In this document: positions 8,120-59,985 of the stretch, piece after piece | Layout of the letters: each line of letters starts with the position of its first letter | Position numbering within the stretch: the first letter of the stretch is position 1 | Assembly (NCBI RefSeq): GCF_056712565.1 | Contig: NZ_CM160072.1 | Reading direction: 5' to 3' (one strand) | DNA: 64,000 bases | Notes under the pieces: generated by a model | Told to the model about the DNA's origin: nothing | What the model saw: only the letters and a program-made list of their open reading frames with translations | Databases searched by the model: none | Translations under genes and position numbers: made by a program

Positions 8120-8206
8120 TGGTGCGAGGGGGGGGACTTGAACCCCCACGTCCGTAAGGACACTAACACCTGAAGCTAGCGCGTCTACCAATTCCGCCAC
8201 CTTCGC
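8120..8206 (-). tRNA. leuV: tRNA-Leu (anticodon CAG), 87 nt including CCA
   Basis: Reverse complement reads GCGAAGGTGGCGGAATTGGTAGACGCGCTAGCTTCAGGTGTTAGTGTCCTTACGGACGTGGGGGTTCAAGTCCCCCCCCTCGCACCA; long variable arm typical of tRNA-Leu. Gene name assigned by order. Confidence 0.9.
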
Positions 8207-8240
8207 ACAGTCATCTTACTTTTTTTGATATCGCCTCGTT

Positions 8241-8327
8241 TGGTGCGAGGGGGGGGACTTGAACCCCCACGTCCGTAAGAACACTAACACCTGAAGCTAG
8301 CGCGTCTACCAATTCCGCCACCTTCGC
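8241..8327 (-). tRNA. leuP: tRNA-Leu (anticodon CAG), variant copy
   Basis: Same 87-nt sequence as neighbours except one base (window position 8280, a instead of g; C to U in the tRNA variable arm). Confidence 0.85.
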
Positions 8328-8355
8328 CCAGTGCGAGCAATATCAACGTGGTTTT

Positions 8356-8442
8356 TGGTGCGAGGGGGGGGACTTGAACCCCCACGTCCGTAAGGACACT
8401 AACACCTGAAGCTAGCGCGTCTACCAATTCCGCCACCTTCGC
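8356..8442 (-). tRNA. leuQ: tRNA-Leu (anticodon CAG)
   Basis: Identical to the 8120-8206 copy; promoter-proximal member of the three-gene tRNA operon. Confidence 0.9.
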
Positions 8443-15457: not shown

Positions 15458-16233
15458 TTTGCCGTTTTATCGACACCCACTGCCATTTTGATTTCCCGCC
15501 GTTTAGTGGCGATGAAGAGGCCAGCCTGCAACGCGCGGCACAAGCGGGCGTAGGCAAGATCATTGTTCCGGCGACAGAGGCGGAAAATTTTGCCCGCGTG
15601 CAGGCGTTAGCGGAAAAATATCAACCGCTGTATGCCGCATTGGGCTTACATCCTGGTATGTTGGAAAAACATAGCGATGTGTCTCTTGATCAGCTACAGC
15701 AGGCGCTGGAAAGGCATCCGGCGAAGGTGGTGGCGGTGGGGGAGATCGGTCTGGATCTCTTTGGCGACGATCCGCAATTTGAGAGGCAGCAGTGGTTACT
15801 CGACGAACAACTGAAACTGGCGAAACGCTACGATCTGCCGGTGATCCTGCATTCACGACGCACGCACGACAAACTGGCGATGCATCTTAAACGCCACGAT
15901 TTACCGTGCACTGGCGTGGTTCATGGTTTTTCCGGCAGCCTGCAACAGGCCGAACGGTTTGTGCAACTGGGCTACAAAATTGGCGTAGGCGGGACTATCA
16001 CCTATCCACGCGCCAGTAAAACCCGCGATGTCATCGCAAAATTACCGCTGGCATCGTTGTTGCTGGAAACCGACGCACCAGATATGCCGCTCAATGGTTT
16101 TCAGGGGCAGCCTAATCGCCCTGAACAGGCCGCCCGTGTGTTTGCCGTGCTTTGCGAGTTACGACCGGAACCGGCGGATGAGATTGCCGAAGTGTTGCTT
16201 AATAACACCTATACGTTGTTTAACGTGCCGTAG
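15454..16233 (+). CDS. yjjV: TatD-family metal-dependent hydrolase YjjV
   Basis: 259-aa ORF from TTG; N-terminal IDTHCHFDF TatD motif; overlaps yjjU stop by 4 nt. Confidence 0.9.
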   Translation: MICRFIDTHCHFDFPPFSGDEEASLQRAAQAGVGKIIVPATEAENFARVQALAEKYQPLYAALGLHPGMLEKHSDVSLDQLQQALERHPAKVVAVGEIGLDLFGDDPQFERQQWLLDEQLKLAKRYDLPVILHSRRTHDKLAMHLKRHDLPCTGVVHGFSGSLQQAERFVQLGYKIGVGGTITYPRASKTRDVIAKLPLASLLLETDAPDMPLNGFQGQPNRPEQAARVFAVLCELRPEPADEIAEVLLNNTYTLFNVP

Positions 16234-16448
16234 GCCGGACAAGGCGTTTACGCCGCATCCGGCCGTTGGCGCACAATGCCTGATGCGACGCTGACGCGTC
16301 TTATCATGCCTACAAGTCTGTGCCGAACCGTAGGCCGGATAAGGCGTTCACGCCGCATCCGGCAGCTGGCGCACAATGCCTGATGCGACGCTTGACGCGT
16401 CTTATCATGCCTACAGGTCTGTGCCGATCCGTAGGCCACATCCGGCAT
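16231..16448. repeat. BIME/REP cluster: ~100-bp unit tandemly duplicated with a third partial copy
   Basis: taggccggacaaggcgtttacgccgcatccggcc...tgcctgatgcgacgctgacgcgtcttatcatgcctacaagtctgtgccgaaccg (16231-16330) is repeated with a few substitutions at 16331-16431, then a fragment taggccacatccggc; each unit contains REP-type palindromes. Confidence 0.8.
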
Positions 16449-29035: not shown

Positions 29036-30268
29036 ATGTCGTCATTTGATTACCTGAAAACTGCCATCAAGCAACAGGGCTGCACTCTACAGCAGGTAGC
29101 TGATGCCAGCGGTATGACCAAAGGGTATTTAAGCCAGTTACTGAATGCCAAAATTAAAAGCCCCAGCGCACAAAAGCTGGAGGCATTGCACCGTTATTTG
29201 GGACTTGAATTTCCCCGGCAGAAGAAAACGATCGGTGTCGTATTCGGTAAGTTTTACCCGCTGCATACTGGACATATCTACCTTATCCAGCGCGCCTGTA
29301 GCCAGGTTGACGAGCTGCATATCATTATGGGTTTTGACGATACCCGCGACCGCGCATTGTTCGAAGACAGCGCCATGTCGCAGCAGCCAACCGTGCCGGA
29401 TCGTCTGCGCTGGTTATTGCAGACCTTTAAGTATCAAAAAAATATCCGCATTCATGCTTTTAACGAAGAGGGCATGGAACCGTATCCACACGGCTGGGAT
29501 GTGTGGAGCAACGGCATCAAAAAGTTTATGGCCGAAAAAGGCATTCAGCCGGACCTGATCTACACCTCGGAAGAAGCCGATGCGCCGCAGTATATGGAAC
29601 ATCTGGGGATCGAGACGGTGCTGGTCGATCCGAAGCGTACCTTTATGAGTATCAGCGGTGCGCAGATCCGCGAAAACCCGTTCCGCTACTGGGAATATAT
29701 TCCTACGGAAGTGAAGCCATTCTTTGTGCGTACCGTGGCGATCCTCGGTGGTGAATCGAGCGGTAAATCCACCCTGGTAAACAAACTTGCCAATATCTTC
29801 AACACTACCAGTGCGTGGGAATATGGTCGTGATTATGTCTTTTCGCACCTCGGTGGCGATGAGATCGCGTTGCAGTATTCCGACTACGATAAAATCGCGC
29901 TGGGACATGCGCAATATATTGATTTTGCAGTGAAATATGCCAATAAAGTGGCGTTTATCGACACCGATTTTGTCACTACCCAGGCGTTCTGCAAAAAGTA
30001 CGAAGGGCGTGAGCATCCGTTCGTGCAGGCGTTGATTGATGAGTACCGTTTCGATCTGGTGATCCTGCTGGAGAACAACACGCCGTGGGTGGCGGATGGT
30101 TTACGCAGCCTCGGCAGTTCGGTGGATCGCAAAGAGTTCCAGAACTTGCTGGTGGAGATGCTGGAAGAGAACAATATCGAATTCGTGCGGGTTGAAGAGG
30201 ACGATTACGACAGCCGTTTCCTGCGCTGCGTGGAGCTGGTGCGGGAGATGATGGGGGAGCAAAGATAA
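29036..30268 (+). CDS. nadR: Trifunctional NAD biosynthesis regulator/NMN adenylyltransferase/ribosylnicotinamide kinase
   Basis: 410-aa ORF; N-terminal HTH, (H)xGH nucleotidyltransferase motif GKFYPLHTGH, Walker A GGESSGKST. Confidence 0.95.
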   Translation: MSSFDYLKTAIKQQGCTLQQVADASGMTKGYLSQLLNAKIKSPSAQKLEALHRYLGLEFPRQKKTIGVVFGKFYPLHTGHIYLIQRACSQVDELHIIMGFDDTRDRALFEDSAMSQQPTVPDRLRWLLQTFKYQKNIRIHAFNEEGMEPYPHGWDVWSNGIKKFMAEKGIQPDLIYTSEEADAPQYMEHLGIETVLVDPKRTFMSISGAQIRENPFRYWEYIPTEVKPFFVRTVAILGGESSGKSTLVNKLANIFNTTSAWEYGRDYVFSHLGGDEIALQYSDYDKIALGHAQYIDFAVKYANKVAFIDTDFVTTQAFCKKYEGREHPFVQALIDEYRFDLVILLENNTPWVADGLRSLGSSVDRKEFQNLLVEMLEENNIEFVRVEEDDYDSRFLRCVELVREMMGEQR

Positions 30269-30310
30269 TCATCTTTATAAGATGTTGAGTGGGATTACTG
30301 ATTCAAAAGT

Positions 30311-30343
30311 GTACTTAGTACTCCATTTCGGTGTACAATGTAC
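30311..30343 (+). promoter_or_regulatory. Paired GTAC-N3-GTAC palindromes upstream of the toxin gene (candidate antitoxin operator)
   Basis: gtacttagtac (30311-30321) and gtacaatgtac (30333-30343), 22 bp centre to centre, between a TTGAGT -35-like hexamer (30285-30290) and the GGAGGGGG RBS; the second contains TACAAT. Confidence 0.5.
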
Positions 30344-30359
30344 CTGCCAGGGAGGGGGA

Positions 30360-30692
30360 ATGGGTAAGGCGATAATATTTATAGAGACGCCAATGTTTAC
30401 GCGTCAGATCAAGCAGATTGCAACCGATGATGAATTAAAGGAATTACAAAAAGAACTCATCGGAACTCCCGATAAAGGTGATCTCATTCAGCAGACTGGT
30501 GGATTGCGTAAAGTCCGAATGGCTGCGGGTTCACAGGGAAAAAGTGGCAGTGTCAGAATAATTTACTTTCTGGCGACGGAAGAGATTATTTATTTGATTA
30601 TGGCCTATCCGAAAAATGCCAAAGATAGTCTGACAGATACGGAAAAAGCTCAACTAAAGAAGTTGACGAAACTGCTCAAAGGCGAGATATAA
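30360..30692 (+). CDS. RelE/ParE-superfamily toxin, HigB-2/Gp49-like
   Basis: 110-aa product MGKAIIFIETPMF...; core GDLIQQTGGLRKVRMA...GKSGSVRIIYFL...YLIMAYPKNAKDSLTDTEK resembles HigB-2-type toxins as I recall them; strong RBS ggaggggg; stop 1 nt from antitoxin start. ORF-track frame 30282..30692 is an upstream extension. Confidence 0.75.
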   Translation: MGKAIIFIETPMFTRQIKQIATDDELKELQKELIGTPDKGDLIQQTGGLRKVRMAAGSQGKSGSVRIIYFLATEEIIYLIMAYPKNAKDSLTDTEKAQLKKLTKLLKGEI

Positions 30693-30693
30693 A

Positions 30694-30978
30694 ATGAGTT
30701 TTTTTGATGAGTTGAAAACCTCTCTGGAAGAGGCTGTCGAGATTAAACAAGGTTTAAAAGAACCTGCACGGGTGACCCGCTACGAAATTGCGGATGTTAA
30801 AGCTATTCGTGAGCAACTCAACGTTTCTCAAAGTGAGATGGCAAAAGCTCTGGGAACCAGTGTGGATACCATTAAAAGCTGGGAATCGAAGCGAAGAAAT
30901 CCTACGGGATTGGCTGCAAAAGTACTTGCCACAATTAAAGAAAATCCTGCCTTTTTCCGGGAACTTGCTTCCCATTAA
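30694..30978 (+). CDS. XRE-family HTH antitoxin, HigA-2-like
   Basis: 94-aa product; HTH IREQLNVSQSEMAKALGTSVDTIKSWESKRRNP; toxin-first order typical of HigBA modules. Confidence 0.75.
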   Translation: MSFFDELKTSLEEAVEIKQGLKEPARVTRYEIADVKAIREQLNVSQSEMAKALGTSVDTIKSWESKRRNPTGLAAKVLATIKENPAFFRELASH

Positions 30979-30991
30979 TCATTTAACTAAT

Positions 30992-31022
30992 ACCGGATGC
31001 GATGCTGGTGCGCCGCATCCGG
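30992..31022. repeat. REP-like palindrome between the antitoxin gene and the convergent ettA
   Basis: accggatgcgatgctggtgcgccgcatccggc: GCCGGATGCG/CGCATCCGGC stems; may act as a bidirectional terminator. Confidence 0.55.
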
Positions 31023-31033
31023 CATTTTACGCA

Positions 31034-32701
31034 TTACTTCGCAATACGCTTGTACTTGATACGCTTCGGCTCCAGCGCGTCTGCGCCCAGCGTGCGTTTC
31101 TTGTACTCTTCGTACTCGGTAAAGTTACCTTCGAAGAACTCAACTTTACCTTCATCCTGGTAATCCAGAATGTGGGTGGCGATACGGTCGAGGAACCAAC
31201 GGTCGTGCGAGATAACCATCGCGCAGCCCGGGAACTCCAGCAGGGCGTTTTCCAGTGCGCGCAGGGTTTCGATATCCAGGTCGTTGGTTGGTTCGTCGAG
31301 CAGCAGCATGTTGCCGCCAACCTGCAGCAGCTTCGCCAGATGCAGACGACCGCGCTCACCGCCGGAGAGTTCGCCAACGCGTTTACCCTGATCAACCCCT
31401 TTAAAGTTAAAGCGGCCAACGTAGGCGCGGCTTGGCATCTCGGTGTTGCCGATCTTCATGATATCCAGCCCGCCGGAAACTTCTTCCCAAACGGTTTTGC
31501 TGTTATCCATTGAGTCACGGAACTGATCAACCGACGCCAGTTTCACCGTTTCACCCAAAGTGATGGTGCCGCTGTCCGGCTGTTCCTGACCAGAGATCAT
31601 ACGGAACAGCGTCGATTTACCCGCACCGTTCGGACCGATGATCCCGACGATCGCTCCTTTCGGGATCGAGAAGCTCAGGGAGTCAATCAGCAGACGATCA
31701 CCATAGGATTTACGCAGGTTGCTGACTTCCAGCACTTTATCGCCCAGACGCGGTCCAGGTGGAATAAACAGTTCGTTGGTTTCGTTACGTTTCTGATATT
31801 CGGTGCTGTTGAGTTCTTCAAAGCGCGCCAGACGTGCTTTACCTTTTGACTGACGGCCTTTAGTTCCCTGACGTACCCACTCCAGCTCTTTCTCGATCGA
31901 CTTACGACGCGCCGCTTCTTGTGAAGCTTCCTGCGCCAGACGCTGATCTTTCTGCTCCAGCCAGGAGGAGTAGTTACCTTCCCACGGAATACCTTCACCG
32001 CGGTCAAGTTCGAGGATCCAGCCCGCAACGTTATCGAGGAAGTAACGGTCGTGGGTAATCGCCACCACGGTGCCTTCGAAGTCGTGCAGGAAGCGTTCCA
32101 GCCACGCTACGGATTCCGCATCCAGGTGGTTGGTCGGTTCGTCGAGCAGCAGCATGTCTGGTTTTTCCAGCAGCAGGCGGCACAACGCCACGCGACGACG
32201 CTCACCACCGGAAAGGTTAGCGATTTTCGCGTCCCAGTCCGGCAGACGCAGCGCATCCGCCGCACGCTCCAGCTGAACGTTCAGGTTGTGACCGTCGTGA
32301 GCCTGAATGATCTCTTCCAGACGGCCTTGTTCAGCGGCCAGCTTGTCAAAATCGGCATCCGGATCGGCATACAGCGCATACACTTCATCCAGGCGTTTCA
32401 GGGCGTTAACCACTTCAGAAACCGCTTCTTCAATGGACTCACGAACGGTGTGTTCCGGGTTCAGCTGCGGTTCCTGCGGCAGATAACCAATCTTGATGTC
32501 TGGCTGCGGACGTGCTTCACCTTCGATGTCTTTATCAATGCCCGCCATAATGCGCAGCAGGGTGGACTTACCCGCGCCGTTCAGACCCAGGACACCAATT
32601 TTTGCCCCAGGGAAGAAACTCAGAGAGATGTTTTTCAAAATATGACGTTTCGGCGGAACAACTTTGCCGACACGATGCATGGTATAAACGAATTGAGCCA
32701 C
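31034..32701 (-). CDS. ettA: Energy-dependent translational throttle ABC-F ATPase
   Basis: 555-aa ORF MAQFVYTMHRVGKVVPPKRHILKNISLSF...; two ABC cassettes (Walker A GLNGAGKST and GPNGAGKST, LSGGE signatures). Confidence 0.95.
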   Translation of the reverse strand: MAQFVYTMHRVGKVVPPKRHILKNISLSFFPGAKIGVLGLNGAGKSTLLRIMAGIDKDIEGEARPQPDIKIGYLPQEPQLNPEHTVRESIEEAVSEVVNALKRLDEVYALYADPDADFDKLAAEQGRLEEIIQAHDGHNLNVQLERAADALRLPDWDAKIANLSGGERRRVALCRLLLEKPDMLLLDEPTNHLDAESVAWLERFLHDFEGTVVAITHDRYFLDNVAGWILELDRGEGIPWEGNYSSWLEQKDQRLAQEASQEAARRKSIEKELEWVRQGTKGRQSKGKARLARFEELNSTEYQKRNETNELFIPPGPRLGDKVLEVSNLRKSYGDRLLIDSLSFSIPKGAIVGIIGPNGAGKSTLFRMISGQEQPDSGTITLGETVKLASVDQFRDSMDNSKTVWEEVSGGLDIMKIGNTEMPSRAYVGRFNFKGVDQGKRVGELSGGERGRLHLAKLLQVGGNMLLLDEPTNDLDIETLRALENALLEFPGCAMVISHDRWFLDRIATHILDYQDEGKVEFFEGNFTEYEEYKKRTLGADALEPKRIKYKRIAK

Positions 32702-43954: not shown

Positions 43955-44023
<69 letters not shown>

Positions 44024-44046
44024 CGCGTACAGGAAACACAGAAAAA

Positions 44047-44078
44047 AGCCCGCACCTGACAGTGCGGGCTTTTTTTTC
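44047..44078 (+). terminator. thr attenuator (leader terminator)
   Basis: agcccgcacctgacagtgcgggct hairpin followed by ttttttt, between thrL and thrA. Confidence 0.93.
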
Positions 44079-53594: not shown

Positions 53595-53694
53595 TGCCTG
53601 ATGCGCTACGCTTATCAGGCCTACGATCTTCTTGCAATATATTGAATTTGCACGATTTTGTAGGCCGGATAAGGCGTTCACGCCGCATCCGGCA
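53595..53694. repeat. REP/BIME element pair between mog and satP
   Basis: ctgcctgatgcgctacgcttatcaggcctac and gtaggccggataaggcgttcacgccgcatccggca, canonical REP palindromes. Confidence 0.7.
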
Positions 53695-57898: not shown

Positions 57899-57986
57899 TC
57901 GCCCTATAAACGGGTAATTATACTGACACGGGCGAAGGGGAATTTCCTCTCCGCCCGTGCATTCATCTAGGGGCAAATCAAAAAAG

Positions 57987-59221: not shown

Positions 59222-59374
59222 TTACTCGGATTCGTAAGCCGTGAAAACAGCAACCTCCGTCTGGCCAGTTCGGATGTGAACCTCACAGAGGTCTTTTCTC
59301 GTTACCAGCGCCGCCACTACGGCGGTGATACAGATGACGATCAGGGCGACAATCATCGCCTTATGCTGCTTCAT
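59222..59374 (-). CDS. hokC: Type I toxin HokC/Gef (small membrane toxin)
   Basis: Translation MKQHKAMIVALIVICITAVVAALVTRKDLCEVHIRTGQTEVAVFTAYESE (50 aa), Hok/Gef family. Confidence 0.93.
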   Translation of the reverse strand: MKQHKAMIVALIVICITAVVAALVTRKDLCEVHIRTGQTEVAVFTAYESE

Positions 59375-59431
59375 TGCTCTCTTCTCCTTGACCTTACGGT
59401 CAGTAAGAGGCACTCTACATGTGTTCTGCAT
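59222..59431 (-). CDS. mokC: MokC, overlapping reading frame translationally coupled to hokC
   Basis: Same frame, upstream ATG at 59431 giving MQNTCRVPLTDRKVKEKRA-MKQHK... (69 aa). Confidence 0.8.
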   Translation of the reverse strand: MQNTCRVPLTDRKVKEKRAMKQHKAMIVALIVICITAVVAALVTRKDLCEVHIRTGQTEVAVFTAYESE

Positions 59432-59477
59432 ATAGGGGGCCTCGGGTTGATGGTAAAATATCACTCGGGGCTTTTCT
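59423..59477 (+). ncRNA. sokC: SokC antisense RNA (approximate position)
   Basis: Placed only by the expected position relative to the mokC start in hok/sok loci; not verified by promoter or structure. Confidence 0.4.
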
Positions 59478-59985
59478 CTATCTGCCGTTCAGCTAATGCC
59501 TGAGACAGACAGCCTCAAGCACCCGCCGCTATTATATCGCTCTCTTTAACCCATTCTGTTTTATCGATTCTAATCCTGAAGACGCCTCGCATTTTTGCGT
59601 AATCAATCTTTAGTACATTGTTTATTTTAACTCTTATGTGCGTTTTCATTTACAAAAGTTGAGATTATGAACAAGAGGTTTAAGTTATGCCTGAATGGTG
59701 AGTTATTACTGGAGAAAGTAATAGAAGATACAAAATATTCTTGTACAGAATTGAATTTTCTTTTTGTGAGGAAAAATGTTTATAAATCAATGAGTGATAT
59801 TTAAAATCGACACACTTTTTGAAACACGATACCTCCACACCCGGGGGTAAAAGTAATCTGCGATCTCCATCACGCTTTGCCATTCACCTTTAAATATACT
59901 TTCTGAGTCGTTCTTAATCAAAATGAATTATCTGATGTATTGATTTCTATGGAACCATAAAAAAAATGAATGGAGAGCATATTAT

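Follow-up and report, generated by a model that had tools for sequence, protein, structure and literature searches.

The DNA that we analyzed (the window, by which we mean the whole 64-kb stretch) is a segment of an Escherichia coli chromosome in which radA and nadR are followed by a two-gene insert, and then by ettA (yjjK) and slt. Between the end of nadR, at position 30268, and the ATG of the first inserted gene, at position 30360, there is a 91-bp gap that contains two short palindromes, which we have named P1 (distal) and P2 (proximal). These features are compiled in Table 1. A listing of Rfam and tRNA features in the window, whose positions are given jointly, comprises a sok-type antisense RNA of a hok/sok type I toxin-antitoxin (TA) locus, a thr operon leader, two naRNA4 (REP-derived) copies, and three tandem tRNA-Leu(CAG) genes; tpke11 and ES036 are found as well.

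Table 1. Features of the nadR-ettA gap and other listed elements, in window coordinates
Feature	Position	Strand	Remarks
P1, distal palindrome GTACTTAGTAC	30311..30321		extended form GTGTAC-TTA-GTACTC, 30309-30323
P2, proximal palindrome GTACAATGTAC	30333..30343		extended form GTGTAC-AAT-GTACCT, 30331-30345
Candidate -35, TGTACT	30310..30315	+	3/6 matches, overlaps P1; best PWM pair; predicted
Candidate -10, TACAAT	30334..30339	+	5/6 matches, inside P2; predicted
Shine-Dalgarno of toxin gene, GGAGG	30351..30355	+	read from sequence; GGAG-type motifs at the equivalent place in homologues
Toxin gene	30360..30692	+	110 aa, HigB2-like RelE/ParE family; RefSeq CDS bounds identical
Antitoxin gene nadS	30694..30978	+	94 aa; N-terminal toxin-binding region and C-terminal XRE-type HTH
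Stable hairpin followed by CAUUUU, terminator-like	30993..31022	+	between nadS and the convergent ettA 3' end; fold -21.6 kcal/mol, z = -3.5
Rfam and tRNA features, listed jointly	59372..59524; 43959..44078; 16233..16411; 8120..8442	-; +; +; -	see text
tpke11	57909..57986		
ES036	53617..53659		

The first inserted gene encodes a toxin with a RelE fold, which matches the Pfam family PF06296 (E = 4.6e-10, 40.2 bits against a cutoff of 27) and whose closest solved relatives are the HigB-2 structures of Vibrio cholerae (E = 8e-17). The product of the second gene, nadS, scores 182.6 bits against the NCBIfam NadS equivalog, for which the cutoff is 60, and also matches HTH_3. When compared as a single sequence by phmmer, NadS aligns weakly with the V. 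cholerae antitoxin HigA2 (VcHigA2) across a 59-residue stretch corresponding to the HTH region (E = 2e-6), and a NadS-family profile of 23 members matches VcHigA2 at positions 2-92 of 94 (E = 1.4e-16), toxin-binding N terminus included. This profile also finds, weakly, the C-terminal HTH domain of MqsA (E = 2e-6) and the P22 c2 repressor. Since both proteins match the corresponding families and the profile homology to HigA2 is full length, the module can be assigned to the HigB2-HigA2 (NadS)-type, toxin-first type II TA pairs. The two genes are tightly coupled, and the toxin comes first in all the 80 homologous loci described below, 76 of which are organized as in E. coli while the other four have a 55-bp gap between the genes.

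Several alternative annotations were considered and rejected. NadS is not an MqsA-type antitoxin, since its 94 residues contain no cysteine pairs or zinc domain, and the MqsA families score below their cutoffs (38 vs. 61.8 for TIGR03830 and 20.5 vs. 30 for PF15731), in both cases through the HTH part only. Salmonella SehAB is not a characterized relative either, SehB being a K-12 HigA-type protein, modeled on 5YCL, from a different family. A longer ORF starting with the ATG at 30282 (30282-30692, 136 aa), which runs in the toxin frame through both palindromes, is almost certainly spurious because RefSeq and all the homologues start at the position equivalent to 30360, behind a Shine-Dalgarno. 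At the other end of the module, the hairpin that follows nadS is probably a terminator, possibly a bidirectional one, and resembles REP sequences. It was not flagged by a consensus scan of 30100-31200 and is apparently a compound fold, not a simple stem-loop. The same scan revealed no terminator 3' of nadR, and read-through transcription from nadR into the TA operon is therefore possible.

P1 and P2 are each a perfect 11-bp palindrome centered on an odd base, and both are preceded by GT, which extends the first half-site to GTGTAC. Their starts are 22 bp apart, corresponding to approximately 2.1 helical turns. The motif that they share, GTACNNNGTAC, occurs in two places only in the 64-kb window, at P1 and P2, when 0.32 occurrences are expected, and of 100 shuffled versions of the window just one had two. 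Base composition gives a probability of about 8e-7 for two such sites falling in the 91-bp intergenic gap. P2 is located at -27 from the toxin ATG, which is near the position (-29 to -38) of the single conserved site in most Enterobacterales homologues, and it ends 17 nt before the ATG and 7 nt before the Shine-Dalgarno. The preliminary description of this DNA, which had reported twin GTAC-N3-GTAC palindromes two helical turns apart with a TACAAT hexamer overlapping the second, is thus accurate on both counts, TACAAT being entirely contained within P2.

Comparative information was obtained from 80 loci encoding the same TA pair, identified by scanning one genome per species, in which the toxin is 68-82% identical to that of E. 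coli. These loci span Enterobacterales, Halomonadaceae, Aeromonas, Marinomonas, Pseudomonas, Methylococcaceae, and others. In the 130 nt that precede the toxin start, 70 of them contain an exact GTAC-N3-GTAC, as one site in 59 loci and as two sites in 11, embedded in flanks that are unrelated between lineages. This represents an approximately 380-fold enrichment, with 81 sites in 10.4 kb of toxin-upstream DNA against five in the other 244 kb. The ten loci with no exact upstream site fall in two groups. Six of them, in Rosenbergiella and Tatumella, have a site with one or two mismatches. The remaining four, in Lelliottia and Enterobacter (loci L028, L031, L036, and L041), are the source of four of the five sites found elsewhere: GTGTACTATGTAC is located at approximately 1853-1863 of the locus, in the 55-bp gap between the toxin gene and nadS, some 37 nt before the nadS start. 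In these four loci, the toxin is longer at its C terminus by about 10-12 aa, and the region upstream of its gene shows only a terminator-like hairpin, which suggests that the antitoxin may have its own autoregulated promoter. As these rearranged loci have the palindrome in front of nadS, the motif stays with the antitoxin gene.

A second site is found 19-22 bp away from the first in 15 of the 80 loci, which makes 16 twin loci when E. coli is counted. The spacing is 21 bp, i.e., two helical turns, in 10 of the 16. In the near-twin loci L006, L030, L033, and L042, one member of the pair has degenerated and shows one or two mismatches.

How the palindromes are positioned relative to the promoter is a separate question. 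The preliminary description had placed them between a -35-like hexamer and the toxin RBS. This holds on the RBS side, where GGAGG follows P2, but not on the upstream side, since the TTG-type hexamers available there, TTGAGT (30285-90) and TTCAAA (30302-07), are 43 and 26 bp from TACAAT, too far for sigma-70, and had to be rejected as -35. The sigma-70 PWM pair that scores best in the 110 nt preceding the toxin gene, and the only one with a compatible geometry, is TGTACT-18 bp-TACAAT, the hexamers of which overlap the palindromes. Its score (6.1 bits) is no better than chance, since 44% of shuffled versions of these 91 bp score as high, and a sigma-70 consensus scan of 30100-31200 detected no promoter at the palindromes. 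We therefore rely on geometry and family patterns, not on score, in placing P1 on the likely -35 and P2 on the likely -10. A -10 downstream of P2 can be discounted because P2 is so near the ATG and the Shine-Dalgarno.

The family patterns are as follows. In the 59 single-site loci, the center of the site is asymmetric, with a T at position 6 in 54 of them (92%) and an A at position 4 in 29%. This oriented asymmetry, which a symmetric dimer would not demand, fits an embedded -10 of the TAC[A/T]AT type. A weak TTG found 22 nt upstream of the site in these loci corresponds to a 17-bp spacer. Among the 16 twin loci, ten (E. coli included) have the T at position 6 in P2, which pairs with TGTACx in P1; the other six have it in P1, whose partner is a -35-like hexamer located further upstream, with scores of up to 11.7 bits. 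The twin loci of Serratia and Symbiopectobacterium likewise display an embedded pair, TGTACA/TACTxT, and the common 21-bp twin spacing gives a 17-bp spacer between the embedded hexamers. Depending on the lineage, the site is found in the spacer between -35 and -10, over the -10, or just downstream of the -10. Consequently, what appears to be conserved is the overlap with the core promoter and not the register, and the geometry in E. coli cannot simply be copied from relatives.

Three additional observations concern the arrangement of the sites. Within a twin, the asymmetric center of one site usually mirrors that of the other, for example ATA vs. TAT, as seen across twin loci in the range L004-L083. 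The site that is not over the -10 seems free in its orientation, yet the mirrored one is preferred. In some loci of Raoultella and Silvania, the larger region of 34 bp is itself one perfect inverted repeat.

In E. coli Z1323HEC0355 (locus L087), about 5 bp separate P1 from an upstream IS element (annotated as an integrase core domain protein), whose insertion point corresponds to approximately 30305 in the window. It replaces all the upstream DNA, leaving P1, P2, and both genes intact, with identical protein accessions. Such an insertion is compatible with a promoter contained within P1 and P2; an outward-reading promoter in the IS element would be an alternative.

If NadS reads these palindromes, its recognition helix should be conserved along with them, and operators should differ when the helix does. 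The segment T55-S56-x-D58-T59-[IV]60-K61-S62-W63-E64-x-x-R67-R68-N69-P70 is essentially invariant across the 80 loci, with D58 in 78 of them, K61 in 79, and S62, R67, and R68 in all 80. NadS residues 58, 61, 62, and 67 align to R68, E71, N72, and R77 of VcHigA2, which are the four base-contacting residues in its crystal structure (PMC11006873). More distant family members, 17 loci taken from plasmid records, fall in three helix classes. The first, D-x-x-[KR]-S, is found in Pantoea, two Klebsiella, and an E. coli IncF plasmid (43-46% identity to E. coli NadS), and comes with GTAC-N3-GTAC in mirrored twins 29-30 bp apart. The second, S-L-[VL]-[QE]-[SA], is found in Klebsiella, Salmonella p40-95A, K. 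oxytoca, and Y. ruckeri (41-48% identity), and comes with TCnTAC-N3-GTAnGA, which in two loci exactly fills the 17-bp spacer of TTGATA...TATAAT or TTGCAT...TATAAT. The third, [RD]-T-L-x-N, is found in four Acinetobacter plasmids, Francisella, and a Salmonella locus by fdhE (33-40% identity), and comes with TACGC-N5-(G/A)CGTA, the type to which the footprinted and crystallized VcHigA2 operator TGTACGC-N5-GCGTACA belongs (PMC11006873). In this small and correlative sample, operator type thus appears to track the recognition helix of the antitoxin, as expected if the antitoxin reads the palindromes, and supports that view. The one-mismatch sites of Rosenbergiella and Tatumella (GTAC-N3-GTAA or GTCA) showed no covariation with helix residues, the helix being the same as in Xenorhabdus, and a scan of viral contigs found no instance of the second helix class. 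The Salmonella locus by fdhE deserves a mention of its own. In a Salmonella Newport record (locus L096), a paralogous HigB2/NadS-type pair adjoins fdhE and is accompanied by two palindromes of the V. cholerae type, CTATACGCCATTGACGTATAG and CCAATGGCGTAT. This pair is probably the relE-1/yiaG-1 (TA27) locus, which is located between yiiD and fdhE in pathogenic E. coli (PMC7232551).

The reading that we favor, with a probability of roughly 85%, is that P1 and P2 are the operators recognized by NadS, the HigA2-family antitoxin encoded 350 bp further downstream. The preliminary description had proposed, from the arrangement of the sites, that the operon is autorepressed by a dimeric HTH antitoxin, and this prediction is supported by the phylogenetic footprint, the homology to HigA2, the motif following nadS, the tracking of the helix, and the asymmetry of the site centers. 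In the proposed mechanism, a NadS dimer, joined by its C-terminal helices as in V. cholerae HigA2, would bind each 11-bp core as part of a full site of about 15 bp (GTGTAC-N3-GTACnn). The dimer on P2 would cover the -10 (TACAAT) and that on P1 the -35 position (TGTACT). Bound on the same face of the helix, the two dimers would exclude RNA polymerase and thereby repress the TA transcript, which is predicted to start near 30346, the Shine-Dalgarno being part of a leader of about 14 nt. The operon would then be de-repressed whenever NadS is lost or titrated. Two properties described for relatives could bear on this scheme, i.e., HigB2 is a co-repressor in Acinetobacter baumannii (PMC5906591), and the toxin-binding N-terminal tail of V. 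cholerae HigA2 also touches DNA (PMC11006873).

The first point on which this reading can be challenged is the contribution of P1. It could be argued that only P2 works as an operator and that P1 is a redundant or decaying duplicate with little regulatory effect. The single site in 59 of the 80 homologous loci indicates that P1 may be dispensable, one of the two sites is degenerate in the four near-twin loci, and in the five E. coli alleles that we compared P2 is invariant, whereas P1 reads GTACTTAGCAC in the APEC O78:H4 allele (L085) owing to a T-to-C change at 30319. However, P1 is exact in the other four alleles, yet the spacer base between the two palindromes, at 30330, is C, A, or T among E. 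coli alleles (L084-L086 being among those compared). Moreover, twins recur in 16 loci within the tight range of 19-22 bp, as well as at 29-30 bp in distant relatives, and in the HigA system of Proteus vulgaris both operators contribute to full repression (PMC12266136). We therefore consider it unlikely that P2 acts alone.

A second possibility, that the sites are bound by a host regulator from outside the module, such as NadR or a global factor, is suggested by the name of the antitoxin family, NadS, and by nadR being immediately upstream of the E. coli locus. It is nevertheless very improbable. None of the 80 homologous loci adjoins nadR or ettA, yet 70 of them keep the motif, which argues against a link with NadR; small plasmids and a wide variety of host genera have the motif; it moves with nadS; and the operator type appears to track the recognition helix of the antitoxin. 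We give equally little credence to the palindromes acting in RNA, as a hairpin in the 5' UTR that would control the stability of the toxin mRNA or its translation. A 4-bp stem is possible within each palindrome, and in the fold predicted for 30300-30365 the Shine-Dalgarno is paired with part of the region, but this fold is as stable as that of shuffled sequences (z = 0.09, with 103 of 200 shuffles at least as stable), the region has no match to an Rfam family, and it is the GTAC letters themselves that are conserved, with no compensatory changes. The sites would, moreover, be untranscribed if transcription starts after TACAAT. Finally, a chance occurrence in AT-rich intergenic DNA, for which one could invoke that only eight bases are specified and that one in 100 window shuffles held two matches somewhere, is refuted by the low probability of two sites in a single 91-bp gap and by the enrichment of the motif ahead of the toxin gene across the homologous loci of 80 species.

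In E. coli, the nadR-ettA gap (30269-31033 in the window; loci L001, L002, and L003) is polymorphic. Of 5,426 complete genomes, only 673 have an intact module, CFT073 and APEC strains among them. Most E. coli have a remnant, which combines the final ~30 bp of the toxin gene with a 55-aa NadS fragment (MSFFDELKTSLEEAVEIKQGLKKPARVTRHEIEDAKAVVDRKRCSRRIRHSVLNA) and a REP sequence, and in some genomes the gap is empty. The remnant has neither the promoter palindromes nor the HTH and keeps the presumed toxin-binding N terminus. Beyond the chromosome, many close homologues (80-84% antitoxin identity) are found on 4-6 kb contigs or complete plasmids of about 5 kb, in Klebsiella, E. coli, Pectobacterium, and others (loci L008, L012, L019, L023-L027, L032, and L040, and plasmid records H29-H32), and a NadS-family gene is present in 589 plasmid records. 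Judging from this distribution, the copy in the E. coli chromosome resembles a plasmid stability module that has been captured.

Published information on this module is scant. The 55-aa fragment of K-12 NadS has been reported as expressed in a screen (PMC12350097), and a survey of adherent-invasive E. coli (AIEC) genomes lists the pair as parE-3/yiaG-2 (TA30) in the nadR-ettA gap, absent from K-12 and HS (PMC7232551). These were the two entries that we found in the literature on NadS, or on nadR and TA, and we found no description of the promoter or operator of the pair. Likewise, a full-text search using the exact palindrome strings returned no TA paper.

The recognition helix and the core motif are essentially identical in E. 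coli, in some 70 other species, and on many 4-6 kb Enterobacterales plasmids, which makes cross-talk between modules possible. One could go further and imagine that all the modules sharing this helix and the GTAC-N3-GTAC core form a single cross-talking group, in which a resident NadS serves as an anti-addiction or exclusion device and not just as a regulator of its own operon. We regard this as a rather doubtful idea. If it were true, the resident NadS would repress the HigB2-NadS promoter of an incoming plasmid, or be titrated by it, and could neutralize the plasmid toxin, and the 55-aa NadS remnant could be a toxin decoy left from such a conflict.

That antitoxins autorepress their operons via promoter palindromes is a textbook principle. 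What our analysis provides is a candidate operator consensus, (GT)GTAC-N3-GTAC(AC), for a widespread and unstudied HigB2-HigA2/NadS branch, members of which are encoded by extraintestinal and adherent-invasive E. coli as well as by many small plasmids. This consensus appears to be undescribed in the searchable literature, and it adds detail, not a new concept. Within one antitoxin family, operator sequence and spacing have changed along with a few residues in the recognition helix, beside a relative for which a DNA complex has been solved. The family therefore offers a natural series that is convenient for work on the evolution of HTH specificity.

The relative in question is V. cholerae HigB2-HigA2 (PDB 5JAA, 8A0W/8A0X; PMC11006873). 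Both of its proteins are homologous to those encoded in the E. coli module, its operon is also toxin-first, and its half-sites also contain GTAC. The HigA2 dimer binds an inverted repeat that extends from after the -35 across the -10 of its own operon (PMC11006873). However, V. cholerae has one 19-bp operator, TGTACGC-N5-GCGTACA, whereas E. coli has two 11-bp sites (about 15 bp when extended), with a center of 3 bp instead of 5 bp and GTAC blocks that are 7 bp apart instead of 13. The residues expected to contact bases differ as well, since R68, E71, and N72 in VcHigA2 correspond to D58, K61, and S62 in NadS, i.e., three of the four. Because contact residues and half-site spacing both differ, the V. 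cholerae structure is not a direct model for the contacts of NadS.

A second HigB2-HigA2 system is found on A. baumannii plasmid pAB120. There, HigA2 represses its own promoter in reporter assays and the toxin co-represses, with no operator having been defined (PMC5906591). Its antitoxin is annotated by PGAP as a member of the NadS family, and the system resides on a plasmid, as do many close homologues of the E. coli module. In contrast, this antitoxin shares only about 37-40% identity with E. coli NadS, and the palindrome found upstream on Acinetobacter plasmids is of the V. cholerae type (TACGC-N5-ACGTA), unlike the sites at the E. coli locus.

Beyond the HigB2-HigA2 type, E. coli MqsR-MqsA (PMC4894380) has a toxin-first organization, a weakly related HTH, and palindromes with short arms around a 3-bp center. 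The sequence of these palindromes, 5'-AACCT-N3-AGGTT-3' (PMC4894380), differs from that of the sites at the NadS locus, MqsA has an N-terminal zinc-binding domain that NadS does not have, and MqsR belongs to a different toxin family. The P. vulgaris (Rts1) HigB-HigA system, in turn, differs in that its toxin and antitoxin are from unrelated sequence families and its operator sequences are different, but it resembles the locus with P1 and P2 in having two separate inverted-repeat sites over the promoter of a toxin-first operon (PMC12266136). These sites, O1 and O2, are each bound by one HTH antitoxin dimer in a noncooperative manner, and both are needed for full repression (PMC12266136).
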